Source: Candidatus Poribacteria bacterium
GTDB lineage: Bacteria; Poribacteria; WGA-4E; WGA-3G
DNA length: 64,000 nucleotides
Direction of reading: 5' to 3'
Assembly (NCBI GenBank): GCA_963663765.2
Contig: CAXXUA010000015.1
Coordinates: 352,001-416,000, forward strand
Numbering within the stretch: position 1 is the stretch's first letter; each line of letters begins with the position of its first letter. The notes beneath the pieces were generated by a model. The model worked only from the letters and a program-made list of their open reading frames with translations, did no database searches and had not been told where the DNA came from. The position numbers were made by a program, and so were the translations under genes. Positions 22,297 to 44,799 of this stretch are shown one piece after another.

Positions 22297-25200
22297 ATGA
22301 ATAATCATAAGCAACTACGTTGTTCCGAATGCGGATTCATGAATCTGCCTGTCAATTTTTGCGGTCAATGCGGCAATAATATTGACAATACTGTTACACC
22401 AATCATTTCTTCATCTATCAACAAAGCAGAAAGACGACAACTTACCGTTCTATTCTGTGATGTAATAGATTCAACAGCGTTGACAGAACAACTAGACCCA
22501 GAGGATTTAAGACAAGTATTAGACGCATATCGAGAATCTGTCGCGAAAGTTGTGTTAGAATTTGATGGACATATCGCAAGATATTTTGGTGATGGTATTC
22601 TTGTATACTTCGGCTATCCGATTGCTCATGAAAACGCAACCCATCGAGCAGTTCAATCAGCATTGAAAATTGTAGCAGGTTTAGACGATTTGAATTCTCG
22701 TTTGATAGAAACATTTGGTATTCAGATACAAACACGACTTAGTATTGATACAGGTTTGGTAGTAGTGTGGGAAGTTGGGATGCCTATGGGTATGACAGAT
22801 GGATATATCCCCGCTTTGGAAAGATACCACGGCGATGCAATTGACATTGTCGGAAAAACACCTAACATTGCAGCGCGCATGCAGCAGATTGCACCACCTA
22901 ACGGGATCGTCGTTGGTGAAACGACTCTCAAATTGATAGAAGGACATTTCACATACAAAGACTTTGGCACGATATCAATTAAAGGGATTTCTCTACCAAT
23001 TCCAATATTTCAAATACTTGATGAATACCCAGATAGTAACCTACTAGCATTTAGACGTGAACAGAATATATTACCGCAGCAGACAAATCTAACACGGTTA
23101 ATTGGAAGAACACGTCAAGTTGCAACTTTATTGGAACGGTGGGAACTCGTTGGTACCGCTTCTGGTCAAGTCGTACTGATAGATGGAGAGGCTGGTATCG
23201 GTAAGTCACGAATTGTCGCAGTGATTGCAGAACAGGCAGCACAAGAGAACGCATTAATCCTTGAATGTCGTGGTTCTCCAGATTCCCAAAATAGTCCGCT
23301 CTACCCAATTCTTTCGCTTTTAAGACATCAATTATTAAAATTTAGTGGAACAGATACAGAAATCATACGTTTGCAGAAACTTGAACAGTTTCTAACAAAA
23401 CAAAAACTTTCAATAAATCTCTTACCTCACTTGGCAGAACTCTTAGAAATACAGGGTGATTTCAACAACAGTAGTATAAAACCTGAACAAAGACGTATAA
23501 CTACTTTACAGACACTTGTTCAGATATTCCTTAAAGCAGCACAGCGAAAAACGCTATTACTGATTTTTGAAGACTTACATTGGGTGGATCCTTCAACATT
23601 GGAGTTTCTTCAACTCCTAACAACTCGTTTGGAAAACGCTGCAATTCTTGCTATTCTAACATCACGTGCAGAAATGGCTGTCAATCAGGACAGCATGCAA
23701 GCAATAGGTAGAGCAAAACTAAAAACACTTATTGAATTGGATTGGGTTACGCAGATTACTTTAAATCAACTAAACAGAAGACAGGTTTCACAAATGATCG
23801 CAGAAGTAGCAGGAGATCAAAAAATACCTGAGGACGTTTCTAAACAAATAGCTGAAAAAACAGAAGGCGTTCCCTTATTTGTAGAAGAAATGACACGTAT
23901 GGCAATTGAATCCGATCTTCAAAGTATAGACGTTACTTCAGAAATACCCGCAACATTACATGAGTCTTTGACAGCAAGACTTGACCGGCTTGGGACTCGT
24001 AAAGAAATTGTACAACTTGGTGCAGCACTCGGAAGAGAATGGACTGCAGAACTCTTACACAAAGTCATTGTAAGTATGACTGAAGAACCTGATAAGAGTG
24101 AGTTTTTAACACACCCCGATCTGATAACGGAATTTCGTCCTACTACAGAACAGAACGTTGACCTTACTTGGCTTGAGAATGAATTACAGCAACTTGTTGA
24201 AGCAGAGATTCTACGTTGTAGACGATCTCATGAGAATAAACTAATTTACACTTTCAAACATCCTATGCTTCGTGAAACAGCTTATCAAACTTTATTAATA
24301 AGCACCCGTCAGGCGTATCACCGTCGTATCGCAGCAGTGTTACGTAAGTCATTTAAGGAAGTTGTTAGAGCACAACCAGAATTAGTTGCATATCATTATA
24401 CTGAGGGAGAAATGCACGCACGAGCTATTGAGTATTGGCAACAAGCAGGACAAAGAGCAGTAGAAAGGTCTGCGAATGTTGAAGGAGTCCAGCACTTATC
24501 ACAGGGTTTGGCATTGTTAAAAGAAATGCCAGACTCCCCAGCACGAGCAGCACGTGAGTTGGTCATTCAAACTACCTTAGGTCCAGCACTTATTGCAACT
24601 ATGGGGTATGCTGCTGTTGAAGTTGAAGAAACTTATACACGGGCAAAGACTCTATTAGAAACAATGCCAAATTACGAACGGATGCTACTCAGATTCCCTA
24701 TCCTGTTTGGTCTGTGGCTTTCTTATCTCGTGCAGGGAAAGTTACAAATCGCGAGAGAAATCGGGGAGCAGTGTCTTGCAATGGCACAGCACCAGGACAA
24801 TAGTGTGTTGGAAGTGGAAGCACATCGCGCATTAGGTGCAACTTTATTTTATCTGGGTGAGTTAAATATGGCACGTAAACACATTGAAGCTGGAATTAAA
24901 AGATACAACCCAAATCAGCATCCTGTACATGCATTCTTCCATTATCTTGCTGACCCCGGTATGACCCTGCATTCTTATGCTGCCCCCTTGTTATGGTATT
25001 TAGGTTATCCTGAACAAGCTGAAGCACAGTTGCAAGCAGCTCAAAAAATGGGTGAGCAACGACCTCATCCTTTTAGCCAAGTAGTTTTTCTACACTTTAG
25101 TGCAATGCTATACTTACAATGTCGTAATTTAGAAAAAGTTAATTCCTATGCAACTGATCTGCTTGTAACGTGTAGAGAGCACGGCTTCTCTGTTTGGGAA

Positions 25201-39667: not shown

Positions 39668-41335
39668 TTACCTTTCAAGTGTTACATTTCGTAAGTATTT
39701 CCAATTTAATGGATGAAGATTAAGGTTTTCCACCTTCTTATTAATTACCAAGACTTGTTTTGCGTGTGCTAATGGCACCCAAGGAACGTCTTTGTGAAAT
39801 ATGCGTTGTGCTTCCATATAGAGTGAAATGCGTTTTTCTTTATCTGTAGTTTCTCTTGCCTTTTCTAATAAATCCTGCATAGCCTCACTTCGATAAAAAG
39901 CGATGTTGGCAGCAGGTTTCTCTGCTGAAGTTTTACTTAAAAGTACATATAAGAAGTTATCTGGGTCTCCAAGGTCAGCACTCCAACCTAACATTGCCAT
40001 GTCATGTTCACCATATTTTGTTTTCTCAAGATATGTGCCCCAATCATAAGTTTGTATTTTTGCATCAATTCCAATTTTTCGGAGATCAGATTGAATAACT
40101 TCTGCCATAGCGCGTCCATCCGGAATGTATGGACGTGGAACAGGTAGTGACCATAGTGTGGTACTAAATCCATCGGGATAACCCGCTTCAGTTAGCAGTT
40201 TTTTTGCAAGTTTAGGATCATAGGTGTAGTCCTGAATAGAATCATCATAACTCCAAAGAGTCGGTGGTATTGGATTCTTTGCTGGTGTTCCCAACCCTTG
40301 GTAGAGATGTTCAATAATAGTCTTTTTATCAATAGCATGGTTTATTGCTAATCTAACCTTTTGATTATTCAAAGGCGGTTTATCTAAGTTCATTGCTAAA
40401 TAACCGATGTTCATCCCGGGTTGAGTAAGTAATGAAAGTTCGTCGTCATCACGTATCTGCTGTAAATCATCTGGATTTGGGAATTCCATCACGTGTATAC
40501 TACCACGTTGGATTTCAATCAATCTCACAGCATTGTCTGGAATAGAACGGAAGATAACTCTATCTAACTTTGGTCTACCACCCCAATAGTTCTTGTTTGC
40601 TTCTAGTACAATTTTATCACTTCTATCCCATCGGACGAACTTAAAGGGACCTGTTCCAACTGGGTTGTTTGAGAATGTATCATCTTGATTCTTGTATTTT
40701 TTTACTGCAGTTGGACTGACGATGGCGAAAGGCGTGATAGCGATTGTATAGATAAAAGGTGCGTAAGCAGTTTTTAGGGTAATCTGTATGGTAAACTCAT
40801 CAATTGCAGTGATATTATCTACGATATTTGCTAAGCCGGTAGCTACCCAATAAATATAGGATCCACCAACATCATGAAACTCATGTGTTTTCTCATGCTG
40901 TCTATTGAGTGAAAACAAGACTGCTTCTGCATTGAATGGTGTGCCATCATGAAATTTGACACCTTTTCGTAGGTAAAATGTCCAAGTTAATCCGTCCTTA
41001 GAACTTTCCCAACGTGTTGCCAGACCCGGTTCAATTTCAGTACTTCTATCTTTATACTGAACAAGTGTATCGTAAATATTATCACATACTTTGAAGGATT
41101 CACCATCTTCTTCAAATGCTGGATCTAATCCAACAGAGTCACCTCCCCGACCAAAAATCAATGTTCCTCCAACACCATGGGAATCCGCATAAGCATAGGT
41201 GGGTAATACTGTCATAGTGAATGTTATTATGGCTACAATAGAAAAAAACAAAAATGATTGTCTCAGATGAATATAAAAACAGTCCAATCTTACAAAATAC
41301 ATTTTGTACAAATCAGCAAATAGGTTTCTTAGCAT
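39668..41335 (-). CDS. dppA: Dipeptide ABC transporter substrate-binding protein (DppA-like)
   Basis: LRKGVKFHDG, NPVGTGPF, PRPYIPD, GDPDNF. Start placed at ATG 41335 (GGAG RBS) because a promoter overlaps ATG 41371. Confidence 0.75.
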   Translation of the reverse strand: MLRNLFADLYKMYFVRLDCFYIHLRQSFLFFSIVAIITFTMTVLPTYAYADSHGVGGTLIFGRGGDSVGLDPAFEEDGESFKVCDNIYDTLVQYKDRSTEIEPGLATRWESSKDGLTWTFYLRKGVKFHDGTPFNAEAVLFSLNRQHEKTHEFHDVGGSYIYWVATGLANIVDNITAIDEFTIQITLKTAYAPFIYTIAITPFAIVSPTAVKKYKNQDDTFSNNPVGTGPFKFVRWDRSDKIVLEANKNYWGGRPKLDRVIFRSIPDNAVRLIEIQRGSIHVMEFPNPDDLQQIRDDDELSLLTQPGMNIGYLAMNLDKPPLNNQKVRLAINHAIDKKTIIEHLYQGLGTPAKNPIPPTLWSYDDSIQDYTYDPKLAKKLLTEAGYPDGFSTTLWSLPVPRPYIPDGRAMAEVIQSDLRKIGIDAKIQTYDWGTYLEKTKYGEHDMAMLGWSADLGDPDNFLYVLLSKTSAEKPAANIAFYRSEAMQDLLEKARETTDKEKRISLYMEAQRIFHKDVPWVPLAHAKQVLVINKKVENLNLHPLNWKYLRNVTLER

Positions 41336-41369
41336 AGTATGACTCCATTGACAAAAATATATATGTTTC

Positions 41370-41398
41370 ATTATATAGATATTTTATACAAAAGTCAA
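41370..41398 (-). promoter_or_regulatory. Sigma-70 promoter of the dppA-dusB-dapF-dapA run
   Basis: TTGACT-17 bp-TATAAT on the minus strand. Confidence 0.7.
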
Positions 41399-41459
41399 GT
41401 CAATTTAGGGTGAGTAAAAGTTATTGCAGACAGAATTGTCAAATCAAGTAATCAATGGA

Positions 41460-41510
41460 ATGAATGTCTTATGACATTCCCGTTTATGAATGCGTATATA
41501 GCATTCCCCG
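41460..41510 (-). repeat. Two GGAATG..CATTCAT hairpin modules related to MITE A cargo
   Basis: Minus strand CGGGGAATGCTATATACGCATTCAT and CGGGAATGTCATAAGACATTCAT resemble CGGGGAATGCCTAAACGGCATTCAT in MITE A copy 1. Confidence 0.55.
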
Positions 41511-41597
41511 GTCTGCGTGGATTTCTCGGAGAAGACTGCAGCATTAGAGATTGCATTGCATAAGATAAGCGTGAGTTAAGCAATATGCACTAATGTA

Positions 41598-42743
41598 ACC
41601 TAAGTTGCTTCCTACAAAACTTAAACTTGGAAACACCATCTAATATCAAAAAAATGCTGATAAATAACCTATATTTTGTAACACAAACTTTATGAAGATT
41701 AATAAATATTGGTGCTTTGTAAGCGCGCCCCTGATTGTAGGCGTGCTTTGTAAGCGCGCCCCTTCCCCCAATGGTAGGCGTGCTTTGTAAGCGCGCCCCT
41801 TCCCCCGATGGTAGTCGTGCTTTGTAAGCGCGCCCCCGATGGTAGGCGTGCTTTGTAAGCGCGCCCCTGATGGTAGGTGTGCTTTGTAAGCGCGCCCCTG
41901 ATGGTAGGCGTGCTTTGTAAGTGCGCCCCCGATGGTAGGCGTGCTTTGTAAGCGCCTCCCGATGGTAGGCGTGCTTTGTAAGCGCGCCCCCGATTGTAGG
42001 CGTGCTTTGTAAGCGCGCCCCTGATTGTAGTCGTGCTTTGTAAGCGCGCCCCTGATTGTAGTCGTGCTTTGTAAGCGCGCCCCTGTGATTGTAGTCGTGC
42101 TTTGTAAGCGCGCCCCTGATTGTAGTCGTGCTTTGTAAGCGCGCCCCTGATTGTAGTCGTGCTTTGTAAGCGCGCCCCTGTGATGGTAGTCGTGCTTTGT
42201 AAGCGCGCCCCTGATTGTAGTCGTGCTTTGTAAGCGCGCCCCTGATTGTAGTCGTGCTTTGTAAGCGCCCCCCTGATTGTAGGCGTGCTTTGTAAGCGCG
42301 CCCCCGATTGTAGTCGTGCTTTGTAAGCGCGCCCCTGATTGTAGGCGTGCTTTGTAAGCGCGCCCCTGATTGTAGGCGTGCTTTGTAAGCGCACCCCCGA
42401 TTGTAGTCGTGCTTTGTAAGCGCGCCCCTGATTGTAGTCGTGCTTTGTAAGCGCGCCCCTGATTGTAGGCGTGCTTTGTAAGCGCGCCCCTGATTGTAGG
42501 CGTGCTTTGTAAGCGCGCTGGCACATCAAGTCCCAACAGCGCGCTTACAAAGCACACCTACCGGGTGAGAAATATTTATCACCGAATTAATAAATTAATC
42601 TTCATCTGCAGCAAAGAAAGTTTCTGTTTTGGGCGTTGTGTCTTGATTTGGCAACTAACATAAGCGATGAACCAATTTCTTATCAACACATGTTTGAAAA
42701 AAACTGTCCAAACTATAGTATAGTACTATGCAGCAACTTAGGT
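41598..42743. mobile_element. Non-autonomous element B (1146 bp) carrying a tandem REP-like array
   Basis: TIRs ACCTAAGTTGCT / AGCAACTTAGGT; perfect 7-bp TSD TAATGTA at 41591-41597 and 42744-42750; no transposase. Confidence 0.8.
41711..42561 (+). repeat. Tandem array of 26 palindromic units (31 bp, GTAG-type REP-like) plus one inverted terminal copy
   Basis: Unit GATTGTAGGCGTGCTTTGTAAGCGCGCCCCT; stem GGCGTGCTT-TGT-AAGCGCGCC; inverted copy at 42537-42561 after a 16-bp spacer. Confidence 0.95.
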
Positions 42744-42930
42744 TAATGTAAGTGTCTTCTCCATGAAATCCGTTGATTATTTTATTGTATCTAAGTACAG
42801 ATTGAAAGCGTTTTATTATTGGTAAGGTTTACACTCGCTACATTGATCTGTAATTACAGTAATTAGAACTTCATCCCATTATCTGTTAAATTCAACTAAT
42901 ACATCATTGAACCTACATAAAAGATAAAAA

Positions 42931-44799
42931 ATGCCTTCAATTGAAAGATTGACACAGAAACTAATAGATACATCACAACCTGTTGCAACCCGTAGAGCTG
43001 CAATCATAGAAATTGCTGAAATTGGGGGAGAACAAGTCCTTCCTTTTCTATTGAATGCATTGCGGGATAATGCACCTGGTGTAAGACGTGAAGCTGCGCA
43101 CGCATTGCAGCAATTCACACTGCATGAAGTATCCTCAGCATTAATGGAGGCTATAAATACTGAAGAAAACGATTTAACACTCTGGACTCTGATTGAGGTA
43201 ATTGGTAACATTGGAACTTCAGAAGTTCTTCTACCACTAAATGAACTTTTAGACAGAACACTTTCACCTTTGACCCGACGTGAAATACAAAAGAGCATTG
43301 ACCAGATAAATGTTAGACTCACAGAATCCGATGAGGACGTTGAACATGATCAGAATTTTACAAATGATAGTGATGTTGATCAAGTCAAAAAGCGAGTATC
43401 CGAATCGGAACAACAGCAATCTGAAATAAACCAAGAGAACAATGATGTCATTGTTGAAGATGATGATAATTCTGAAGACTTGGAACAAATAACTGAAATT
43501 TCAGTTGAGGATGCTGATGACAAAAATGTTGAGAATGAAAGTAACACCGATGAAATTGAAGTGTCAGTTCTTGAAGCAAGTGATGAGCAAGAACAGGTAT
43601 CTGTAACGTCAAATACAGAAGAATCTAAAGACACTGCAGTTCATATTAATAAATCTGATAAATCAAATGATAAAACAGACACCACAGATAACTTAGCATC
43701 TAATATTGGTGCAATTCAGATTGTTGGTACATCCCCTGCGTTGCCAGTACTCGTACCTAATACTTCAGTTGTAATATATGAACAGGAAGATAGGCATTAT
43801 AAGCCGAGTATTTTTGCATTGGTGTTGCGTCCTAATGCATATTTATCAAGAAGATGGGTTTCACGTACTCGACTATTTCTTGTATTGTTATGTCTATTGC
43901 TAGGTGCAACAGTTACCTTAGTTTATTCTCAAGTACAACGCATGCCCCGTTCTCCCTATTTTCAAGCGTTTGATAGCGATTTTATCAGCGATCCTCAATT
44001 ATATCTTGCTGAGGCGAGTTTCTCATTACAACAAACAGATTTTCGTAGTGCTATTGAAAAGTTTGAGCTTGTAAGGAGTAATAATACGATTGAATCTAAA
44101 TTTTTCAGGGAATTAGGGTATGCCTATTTTCAGGAAAAACAATATGCTTCAGCAGTTGAAGCGTATGAGTATTATTTACAGACTCGAACAATTAACGCAT
44201 ATCAGCCATTTGTAGCAGAAGCATCAATTCCAAATGTTGGCAGTGCGTCTGAATTTAGTCGTTCTTCGGATTATACGACATATAACATCATTGGAACAAT
44301 ATATAAGAAGTTGGGACAGTACCATAAAGCGCGAAATACCTTTGAAACTGCAATCACTATTGAACCCAAGGAAGCGGAAGCATATAATAATCTCGCTCAA
44401 CTCTATATTGAAAACTATCAACAAAAGAATCTATTAGCAGAAGCACTTACATATACATCAGTTGGACTTCGACCTCAATCAGCAACATATCATGATACCA
44501 TGGGTTGGATCGCAAGTAAACGTGGACGTATAAACAAAGCTACTAACGCTTTAGAGCATGCAATCCGATTGCAAAGTGATTTTGTGCCGGCACATTATCA
44601 CTTATCAGAGATAGATAATAAAACAAGAAATCCACAAGAATCTGTAGAATCTTTTCAATACAAACACATTAATAAGTTGATACAAAGAAATAGTCCAAAA
44701 CCGGGGATATTGGGTCTACTGTCATATATGTATGATAAAGATGTACAAAAACTTCCAAGATTATTCACTTCAATGCTGGAGCATAGGGGATTAAAATAG
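42931..44799 (+). CDS. HEAT-repeat / acidic linker / TM / TPR protein
   Basis: PBS-lyase-like HEAT repeats (LRDNAPGVRREAAHAL), D/E-rich linker, TM LFLVLLCLLLGATVTLVY, TPRs (AYNNLAQ, YHDTMGW). Confidence 0.75.
   Translation: MPSIERLTQKLIDTSQPVATRRAAIIEIAEIGGEQVLPFLLNALRDNAPGVRREAAHALQQFTLHEVSSALMEAINTEENDLTLWTLIEVIGNIGTSEVLLPLNELLDRTLSPLTRREIQKSIDQINVRLTESDEDVEHDQNFTNDSDVDQVKKRVSESEQQQSEINQENNDVIVEDDDNSEDLEQITEISVEDADDKNVENESNTDEIEVSVLEASDEQEQVSVTSNTEESKDTAVHINKSDKSNDKTDTTDNLASNIGAIQIVGTSPALPVLVPNTSVVIYEQEDRHYKPSIFALVLRPNAYLSRRWVSRTRLFLVLLCLLLGATVTLVYSQVQRMPRSPYFQAFDSDFISDPQLYLAEASFSLQQTDFRSAIEKFELVRSNNTIESKFFRELGYAYFQEKQYASAVEAYEYYLQTRTINAYQPFVAEASIPNVGSASEFSRSSDYTTYNIIGTIYKKLGQYHKARNTFETAITIEPKEAEAYNNLAQLYIENYQQKNLLAEALTYTSVGLRPQSATYHDTMGWIASKRGRINKATNALEHAIRLQSDFVPAHYHLSEIDNKTRNPQESVESFQYKHINKLIQRNSPKPGILGLLSYMYDKDVQKLPRLFTSMLEHRGLK

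Follow-up and report, generated by a model that had tools for sequence, protein, structure and literature searches.

Nested selfish repeats in a Candidatus Poribacteria genome: an IS982-type MITE enclosing a REP array that probably grew in place

Introduction

How does a long array of GC-rich hairpins come to lie inside a mobile element of another kind, and did the element carry the array there or did the array grow where it now stands? The question is raised by positions 41598-42743 of a 64,000-nucleotide stretch of Candidatus Poribacteria DNA (the window; G000:C15:352001-416000), where inverted ends and a short direct duplication enclose many hairpins headed by GTAG. G000 designates the genome under study, a metagenome-assembled genome (MAG) of 6.35 Mb in 15 contigs, with ~41% GC and 97.8% completeness; the other G-numbers used below designate genomes of congeners. 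A first-pass annotation of the window had seen here a miniature inverted-repeat transposable element (MITE) carrying an amplified array of repetitive extragenic palindromes (REPs), and had proposed a MITE-REP hitch-hiking system. We conclude that the locus is probably a non-autonomous MITE of the IS982 type inserted in TAATGTA, forming the outermost layer of a nested stack of selfish repeats, and that its array grew in place.

GTAG-tagged REPs are short stem-loops that occur as singletons, as inverted dimers and as tandemly reiterated clusters; the accessible part of the paper describing them counts 24 families and reports that REP dimers of Anabaena variabilis regularly lie within conserved palindromes of greater length (Di Nocera, De Gregorio & Rocco 2013, PMC3733652). 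Our literature search returned no paper on REPs or on REP-associated tyrosine transposases (RAYTs) in Poribacteria, REP consensus tables held in supplements and figures being outside its reach.

Results

A 1146-bp element with inverted ends and a 7-bp duplication

Positions 41591-41609 read TAATGTA followed by ACCTAAGTTGCT, and positions 42732-42750 read AGCAACTTAGGT followed by TAATGTA, so that the bracketed element (41598-42743) measures 1146 bp. We searched for perfect 12-nt inverted repeats that span at most 3 kb and directly adjoin a 7-nt direct repeat on their outer sides. This figure occurs at one site in the window, the present one, and at none in 30 block-shuffled windows, which confirms the nested element bounded by terminal inverted repeats (TIRs) and a target-site duplication (TSD) that the first-pass annotation had described. 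Its statement that the shell lacks a transposase also holds: no credible open reading frame (ORF) or transposase gene was found inside 41598-42743, where the only frames are repeat-derived. Two of these run through the array on the minus strand, of 303 aa (41646-42557) and 276 aa (41699-42529), and an ORF finder would call both genes. We rejected a coding reading, as they are translations of repeats and their Pfam hits (Herpes_UL14, E2-E1mid) contain no independently passing stretch. A comparison of 41000-43200 with Rfam gave no family that attained its gathering score; what the hairpin matched below threshold, eukaryotic models of miRNA and snoRNA, is due to chance.

The edges of the layers were placed at sharp steps in the BLAST coverage of 41201-43000 against G000. 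The features are the following.

41591..41597, no strand: left copy of the target-site duplication TAATGTA, of the AT-rich TAnnnTA type, 7 bp as in 12 of the 18 family copies
41598..41691, plus strand: left arm of the outer IS982-type MITE, with the TIR ACCTAAGTTGCT at 41598-41609, ending in the left hairpin half ACACAAACTTT; ~12 other copies at 78-93% identity
41692..41711, plus strand: truncated left arm of the inner palindromic carrier (type I), ATGAAGATTAATAAATATTG, delimited by a BLAST coverage step; full-length carriers are ~165 bp
41712..42520, plus strand: tandem array of 26 direct REP1 cores (GTGCTTTGTAAGCGCGC) in units of 30-37 nt, mostly 31 nt, from the repeat search and the unit fold
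42496..42561, no strand: terminal REP doublet, a REPIN-like hairpin made of the last direct unit and an inverted copy, 96% complementary and supported by the fold (REPIN, inverted REP doublet hairpin)
42563..42606, plus strand: full right arm of carrier I, ending ...AATTAATAAATTAATCTTCAT, with 126-160 other copies by BLAST coverage, from the alignment with solitary carriers
42607..42720, plus strand: right-end fragment of an IS701-type MITE, 114 bp, ending ...TGTCCAAACTATAGTA; 33 other BLAST matches
42721..42743, plus strand: right end of the outer MITE, with the 12-nt TIR AGCAACTTAGGT at 42732-42743, from TIR and TSD
42744..42750, no strand: right copy of the target-site duplication TAATGTA, read from the sequence

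The outer shell is an IS982-type MITE

The shell belongs to a dispersed family. Its canonical copies measure 214-215 bp, and ~12 other copies of its left arm are present in G000, where we counted 18 TIR pairs of the form AC[CGT][CT]AAGTTGCT, flanked in 12 cases by a perfect AT-rich duplication of 7 bp. Copies devoid of an array, for which the first-pass annotation had suggested a search, do exist and span 152-289 bp in the TIR pair search; a mini-copy of the same subfamily begins at G000:C15:522724, with TATAATA on both sides. Canonical copies carry an internal hairpin, GCGCAAACT-TTT-AGTTTGCG, of which ACACAAACTTT is the left half.

IS982 ends start with AC, and insertion of these elements gives duplications of 3-9 bp. 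The resemblance of the ACC ends to this family, which the first-pass annotation had pointed out, could be traced to matching elements. Indeed, among 30 IS982 loci searched for end pairs (one from G000 and 29 from congeners), 14 have ends of the ACGTGAG type, with a perfect 7-bp duplication in 5 of the 14 under a strict check, four have shell-type ends and 12 gave no pair. The four are elements of 925-927 bp in four congeners (L079-L082, in G002, G005, G008 and G012), ending in ACC[CT]AAGTTGC[TC]ACCTAT, with transposases that reach 156-171 bits against NF033520, for which the cut-off is 130. ACCTAAGTTGCT is identical to the first 12 end bases of the L080 and L081 elements and differs by one base from those of L079 and L082; L079 alone among the four has a perfect 7-bp duplication, TATCATA. 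The shell thus shares with the IS982 family its AC-starting ends, its 7-bp duplication and 12 of 12 terminal bases, the autonomous form being of ~0.9-1.0 kb with one transposase gene; it differs in that its interior is largely replaced by other repeats and in that no matching autonomous copy was found in G000. Taken together, the TIR, the TSD length, the lack of a transposase and the dispersed copies all fit, and on these sequence characters the shell is an IS982-type MITE.

The cognate transposase that the first-pass annotation suggested looking for was thus found in four congeners and not in G000. A tblastn search with the L079 transposase gave only relatives of 25-31% identity in this genome, and its TIR pairs up to 3.5 kb yielded MITEs and nothing else, one of these MITEs having an unrelated insertion sequence nested in it (IS; C3:495107-496505). 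G000 has five IS982 transposases of its own above the NF033520 cut-off. The ends of these resident copies, ACGTGAGTTTGATAA, with 7-bp duplications TACTATA and TATGTTA, resemble the shell ends but differ from them. Since no matching autonomous element was found in G000, the shell is probably stranded now, unless the more distant resident copies can mobilise it.

Two side observations concern these elements. The IS982 type with shell-matching ends reaches up to 8 copies in several congeners and has no close homologue in G000. At C3:495107-496505, the unrelated IS that splits the MITE of the shell TIR family measures ~1 kb and has its own ends, CAGGACTTACGCA, a motif that recurs beside many REP arrays; the 401-aa open frame of this IS (stop to stop) resembles a DDE transposase.

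A palindromic carrier and an IS701-type fragment within the shell

The REP of this locus lies inside a further element, which we call carrier I. Solitary copies are palindromes of ~165 bp that begin ATGAAGATTAA..., hold a REP doublet with a conserved loop, and finish ...TTAATCTTCAT; the two end motifs occur 203 and 234 times in G000. Carrier I arms surround the REP doublet in many of the 30 solitary inverted clusters listed. In the shell, carrier I lies after ...ACACAAACTTT, that is at the tip of the internal hairpin, and its left arm is truncated. The outer 12-nt flanks of carrier I are complementary at nine or more positions in 11 of 64 end pairs, against 0 of 64 in an out-of-register control, and carriers therefore tend to sit at the tips of other palindromes. 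No carrier I copy bearing a transposase was found in G000, the long end pairs enclosing arrays or ordinary genes. A TA duplication, sought by eye, fits the flanks of a few copies and not those of others.

The shell is also composite on its right side, where 114 bp derive from an IS701-type MITE. In G000 this family comprises 20 TIR pairs, including two copies of 1537 bp (G000:C15:456581-458117 and G000:C6:107579-109115) with TACTATAGTTTGGACA ends and ~5-bp duplications, and among the aligned copies similarity stops at ...TGTCCAAACTATAGTA. One 1537-bp copy encodes a 429-aa IS701-like transposase (NF049999, 168.8 bits, just below the cut-off of 170). These two elements are likely the autonomous partners of the MITE whose fragment occupies 42607-42720.

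A second carrier type (TAGGTGTCAACTTAGCG...AAGTTGACACCTA) holds REP1 arrays as well, ~15 of them (e.g. C2:50456-51472 and C15:195705-196081). Its arms are asymmetric, and the expanded arm is on the same side in every case listed, which suggests either one array-bearing ancestor or growth with a fixed polarity.

The array and its private variants

The array stands out from its flanks by composition (GC 0.555-0.605 against 0.26-0.41). Tandem Repeats Finder delimited it at 41712-42518 with a period of 31, 25.5 copies and 93% matches, and a separate repeat search gave 26 direct copies. These 26 units lie head to tail and are followed by one inverted copy at 42539-42562, which forms with the last direct unit a hairpin of 25-nt arms and 16-nt loop (DNA fold -28.5 kcal/mol, z -8.7). 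A unit consists of GTA-GGCGTGCTT-TGT-AAGCGCGCC and a spacer, and folds on its own into a GTAG-headed stem of 9 bp, with one G-T pair and a 3-nt loop (-9.2 kcal/mol, z -4.9). Read along the array, each unit is thus a core, a C-rich spacer and GTAG(G/T)C. The first-pass annotation had spoken of a palindromic array: the term suits the single units, each of which has its small palindrome, and not the whole, which is 26 direct copies and one inverted copy.

Two other classes of repeat were considered for this structure and set aside. A CRISPR array was rejected because there are no unique spacers, the sequence between cores being itself repeated, although no search for cas genes was made. A bacterial interspersed mosaic element (BIME) was rejected because the orientation does not alternate.

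The variants tell where the array grew. The 18-mer GCGCGCCCCTGATTGTAG, which covers the core end, the spacer and GTAG, has 12 copies in the whole genome, and all 12 are in this array, which argues that it grew in place. Roughly one unit in two is a variant confined to it. The 13-20 nt between cores are repeated too, and the 15 distinct units among 25 differ by point changes. Moreover, the spacers are blocked, being of the GATGG type in units 2-8 and of the GATTG type in units 9-25 except unit 15, and units 10-12 and 13-15 repeat a 31+31+33 pattern, that is a higher-order period of 95 nt. The private variants and the 95-nt period show growth in place. They fit a process that starts with local duplication of the REP and some 5′ flanking sequence and goes on by slippage or unequal exchange; a repeated import of units would not fit. 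The part of the earlier proposal that had REPs amplified within the MITE is accordingly the one that stands, while direct insertion of REPs into the MITE gives way to their arrival inside a separate palindromic carrier.

The REP1 family in G000 and its relatives

With up to two mismatches, the 17-nt core has 1768 copies in G000, distributed in 466 clusters. Of these, 307 consist of one core only, 46 are pairs, inverted doublets in 30 cases, and 91, the arrays, have at least five copies. Among the latter, 48 consist of n direct copies and one inverted end copy, 38 are all direct at this stringency, and 5 are arranged otherwise; several of the 38 end in a degenerate inverted copy. Other arrays have spacers of their own, often made of iterated short C-rich modules.

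The arrays occupy the centres of several different palindromic carriers. By TIR pairs, the IS982-type shell houses only 2 of the 91, and only 2 of its 18 TIR pairs hold an array; the other classified arrays are in other palindromic carriers. A dedicated MITE-REP hitch-hiking system, as first proposed, is not borne out by this distribution. The second array-bearing shell (G000:C4:873452-874827) measures 1376 bp, has the TSD TATTATA and contains 31 cores. Its carrier occupies the tip of another internal hairpin than the one used in 41598-42743, and the two shells therefore received their carriers in separate insertions.

REP1 is strongly amplified in this genome. At up to one mismatch we counted 1581 cores in G000, 0-53 in 24 congeners and none in 16 genomes of other families of the order, and a degenerate pattern admitting the variants of relatives gave 1621 in G000 against 0-188 in 39 congeners, an excess of at least 8-fold. 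As several of the low-count congeners are single-contig assemblies, the excess is not only an effect of assembly. The exact 23-nt REP was found in species genomes at 21 loci, 20 of them in Poribacteria and one in an 'uncultured bacterium' MAG.

RAYT genes next to REP arrays

Six Y1-transposase matches were obtained in G000, namely four IS605-type TnpA genes, three of which have a TnpB-like frame alongside, and two RAYT frames. The intact RAYT (159 aa, G000:C4:621000-622500; NF047646, 122.5 bits for a cut-off of 80) has tandem arrays of a different GTAG repeat on both sides, of the GTAGGAGGGAACTCCGATTCCCG and GTAGGAGCGATCTCCGAATCGCGACC types. A flanking family other than REP1 is what would be seen if every RAYT were paired with a REP of its own.

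The second frame (G000:C10:24997-25277) starts ~30 bp after a 10-core REP1 array; array and frame together span G000:C10:24558-25277, at the end of a 25-kb contig that has 39 REP1 cores. Its 54-aa N-terminal piece scores 24.6 bits on NF047646, whose cut-off of 80 was set for the whole protein. The closest relative of this piece is in G008, with 64% identity over 53 aa, and is flanked by a single REP1-like copy, GTAGGCGCGTTTTGTAAACGCGCC, on one side and by an inverted doublet of GTAGGCGCGTTTTGTAAACGCGCC on the other. Another 10 RAYT loci were retrieved from relatives, and the REP1 core lies near none of them. We read the C10 frame and its G008 relative as a putative cognate RAYT clade of REP1, by association. 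The view of the first-pass annotation that hairpins following GTAG are the mark of RAYT-type REPs is thus upheld for the form of the units, which are GTAG-headed hairpins, while a tie of the family to a RAYT is suggested by the neighbouring frames in these two genomes.

Relatives, public contigs and a sister copy

In G016, the closest congener, the two flanking genes are adjacent (83% and 76% identity) across a short spacer without the element. G016 is too diverged for this spacer to be aligned base for base, and an exact empty site with a single TAATGTA was not found.

Short-read contigs of organism A from two studies reproduce 40900-41740 and 42674-43400 with no difference, and both junctions are therefore sound; one organism A run may be the source of the assembly under study. 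Two joints that skip the array (41701>42581 in X7 and 41708>42556 in X1) were not counted, their sides being only 24-27 letters long in a repeat common to many loci.

A sister copy was found at G000:C5:1496438, where a shell arm of 93% identity follows TAAAATA. It has the same shell-carrier junction and the same junction of carrier and IS701-type fragment, with 93% identity in both shell segments. Its interior is made of four units of the second REP family (see below), a heptamer run and a collapsed REP1 hairpin. No right TIR-like or TSD-like match was found for it within 2.5 kb.

Neighbourhood of the element

The element is located between two divergent genes, and hence between their promoters: a family-5 solute-binding protein gene on the minus strand (39668-41371) and a HEAT/TPR protein gene on the plus strand (42931-44799). 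Directly to its left, a second family of GTAG-type hairpins (GGAATGAATG...CATTCC and GAATGC...GCATTC) fills a block at 41435-41515; BLAST coverage gives it ~145 other copies. At other loci this family is found exactly between GTAGGC and the REP1 core, followed by CTTGATT heptamer runs. It is absent from the corresponding spacer in G016.

Discussion

A probable stack of separate events

The layers of this locus are best explained by several events, not necessarily in the order given here. A DDE transposase of the IS982 family, to which the ends point, would have placed the shell and made the 7-bp duplication. Carrier I, with the REP doublet at its centre, would have come to the tip of the internal hairpin of the shell, where we find it, and the REP would have entered inside this separate carrier and not directly. 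The IS701-type MITE, whose fragment is in place, would have replaced the right interior of the shell. One arm of the REP doublet, with ~14 nt of its 5′ flank, would have been copied in tandem, head to tail, and would then have grown on the spot to 26 units, likely by replication slippage or unequal exchange as in minisatellites. As for the REP1 family (1768 cores, 91 arrays), it was most likely seeded by a RAYT-type HUH transposase, directly or via carriers, if the association with RAYT frames reflects an activity of these.

Several observations weigh against this reading or parts of it. The exact empty site, that is ...CACTAATGTA joined directly to AGTGTCTTC..., was found neither in G016 nor in near-identical contigs from four public runs, and the insertion is therefore deduced from the TIR, the TSD and the family alone. 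Contigs of organism B and of a sponge metagenome also carry the element ends at the 41598-42743 site, and since the ends are present in organism A as well, the insertion predates these strains. No contig of the four public runs spans the interior of the array (41740-42526), so that the count of 26 copies is that of this assembly only. Identical neighbouring units number 5 where 2.46 are expected (p = 0.058), a marginal excess. The C10 RAYT frame is cut by the contig end and has a frame change near 25152-25158, and may be a pseudogene or an assembly error; the putative link between REP1 and a RAYT is one of adjacency in two genomes. Most other arrays are headed by GCAG and not by GTAG, which weakens a simple reading of the units as products of RAYT cleavage. 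Finally, the junctions common to our locus and C5:1496438 imply that the composite was copied at least once after the carrier had arrived. A carrier riding in the shell is thus possible, but this leaves no room for the present array having done so.

Did the MITE carry the array?

The last point leads to the alternative that the MITE was the vehicle, the carrier and an already amplified array being inside the shell at the time of transposition, so that a DDE transposase would spread whole arrays, which is the hitch-hiking idea of the first-pass annotation. The sister copy, with its two shared junctions, shows duplication of the composite after carrier arrival; the shell at C4:873452-874827, with its perfect 7-bp duplication, also holds an array, of 31 cores; and the constant side of expansion in type II carriers would fit inheritance of arrays with their carrier. 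However, this array is not in C5:1496438, which has in its stead a collapsed REP1 hairpin with four units of another REP and which lacks a right TIR, and the carrier of the C4 shell is at a different internal hairpin and marks an independent event. Moreover, the private 18-mer is confined, 12 of 12, to one array, arrays are present in only 2 of the 18 shell TIR pairs, and no matching autonomous IS982 was found in G000. We therefore regard transport of the array by the MITE as unlikely.

A bolder version of nesting, which we hold to be quite unlikely, would make the REP-cored palindromic carriers a distinct class of very small mobile elements homing to the tips of other hairpins, with no visible transposase of their own. 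By nesting in MITEs of the DDE type (IS982, IS701 and others), a RAYT-dependent repeat would gain a second way of spreading, independent of a transposase. If it were true, carrier homing would account for the burst of at least 8-fold and the ~90 polar arrays of G000; and if growth of the arrays also needed nicking by a RAYT at GTAG, the arrays would record the activity of an HUH nuclease and not passive slippage.

Did a RAYT build the array?

IS200/IS605 elements insert next to a target tetranucleotide. By analogy, a RAYT might have built the array unit by unit, each 31-nt unit (hairpin, spacer and GTAGGC) being inserted 3′ of an existing GTAG, so that the units would stack head to tail. Such a process would explain why GTAG(G/T)C closes each unit of the array and abuts the hairpin that follows; the second REP family is inserted exactly between GTAGGC and the REP1 core at many loci, and a RAYT fragment adjoins another REP1 array. 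But imported units should bear common spacers, and some half of those present are variants seen in no other array; the variants are blocked along it with a 95-nt higher-order period, and most other arrays are GCAG-headed, with spacers of iterated C-rich modules that point to slippage. Construction by a RAYT is thus very unlikely in our opinion.

That the array or its size is an artefact of assembling a repeated 31-mer, the true locus having a single REP doublet in its carrier, would be helped by the lack of a contig across 41740-42526 and by like units at ~90 other loci, which invite mis-joins, but it is extremely improbable, as contigs from two studies show 0 differences on either side, where they lead from unique flank across TSD, TIR and shell as far as the first unit, and again from the right arm of the hairpin into unique flank, the private variants are found nowhere else in the assembly, and arrays of this kind occupy 91 loci of a 15-contig assembly.

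Growth in place within a carrier lodged in an IS982-type MITE thus remains the reading that we prefer.

Comparison with known repeats

Bacterial minisatellites are tandem repeats that grow by slippage or unequal exchange. The present array resembles them in its head-to-tail units of ~31 nt, private variants, unit blocks and higher-order period, and differs from them in that its unit belongs to a dispersed mobile repeat family and that an inverted copy caps it.

With GTAG REPs, as they appear in the accessible part of PMC3733652, REP1 shares the GC-rich GTAG-headed stem-loop, the high copy number, and the occurrence as singletons, inverted dimers and clusters, and the embedding palindromes of Anabaena variabilis parallel the carrier seen here. 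Poribacteria is not among the phyla named there for GTAG repeats. What differs here is the amplification of one doublet arm to 26 units, and the layout of n direct copies and one inverted copy in 48 of 91 arrays.

The inverted REP doublet hairpin is also the basic unit of REPINs, and the adjacency of a RAYT-type gene to the repeat, with different RAYTs flanked by different REP families, is common to both systems, to the extent covered by the portions of the two papers accessible to us (Bertels & Rainey 2011, PMC3116915; Bertels, Gallie & Rainey 2017, PMC5581495). Unlike in that system, the REPIN here is wrapped in AT-rich palindromic arms of ~45 nt and nested in other palindromes, most copies are in direct tandem arrays and not in dispersed doublets, and the adjoining RAYT is incomplete in the assembly. 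The BIMEs of enterobacteria are likewise composite REP clusters in extragenic DNA; their REPs, according to the part of the source available, are regularly spaced and alternate (Nunvar et al. 2010, PMC2817692), whereas the present array has 26 units in one orientation and inversion in its last pair alone.

Each layer of the locus therefore has a counterpart among known selfish DNA, and the nested case, tidy as it is, is ordinary and not new in kind.

Conclusion

In conclusion, the locus offers a dissected example of the stacking of a DDE-type MITE, a palindromic carrier, a REP doublet and a minisatellite-like expansion in the genome of a sponge symbiont. To this our study adds the name of the probable mobiliser family of the shell, IS982, an excess of REP1 of at least 8-fold over 39 congeners, and the polarity of most arrays, with one inverted cap. 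For annotation, such arrays give long false ORFs and break short-read assemblies. For the biology of this uncultured symbiont, they are candidate hot spots of copy-number change beside promoters.

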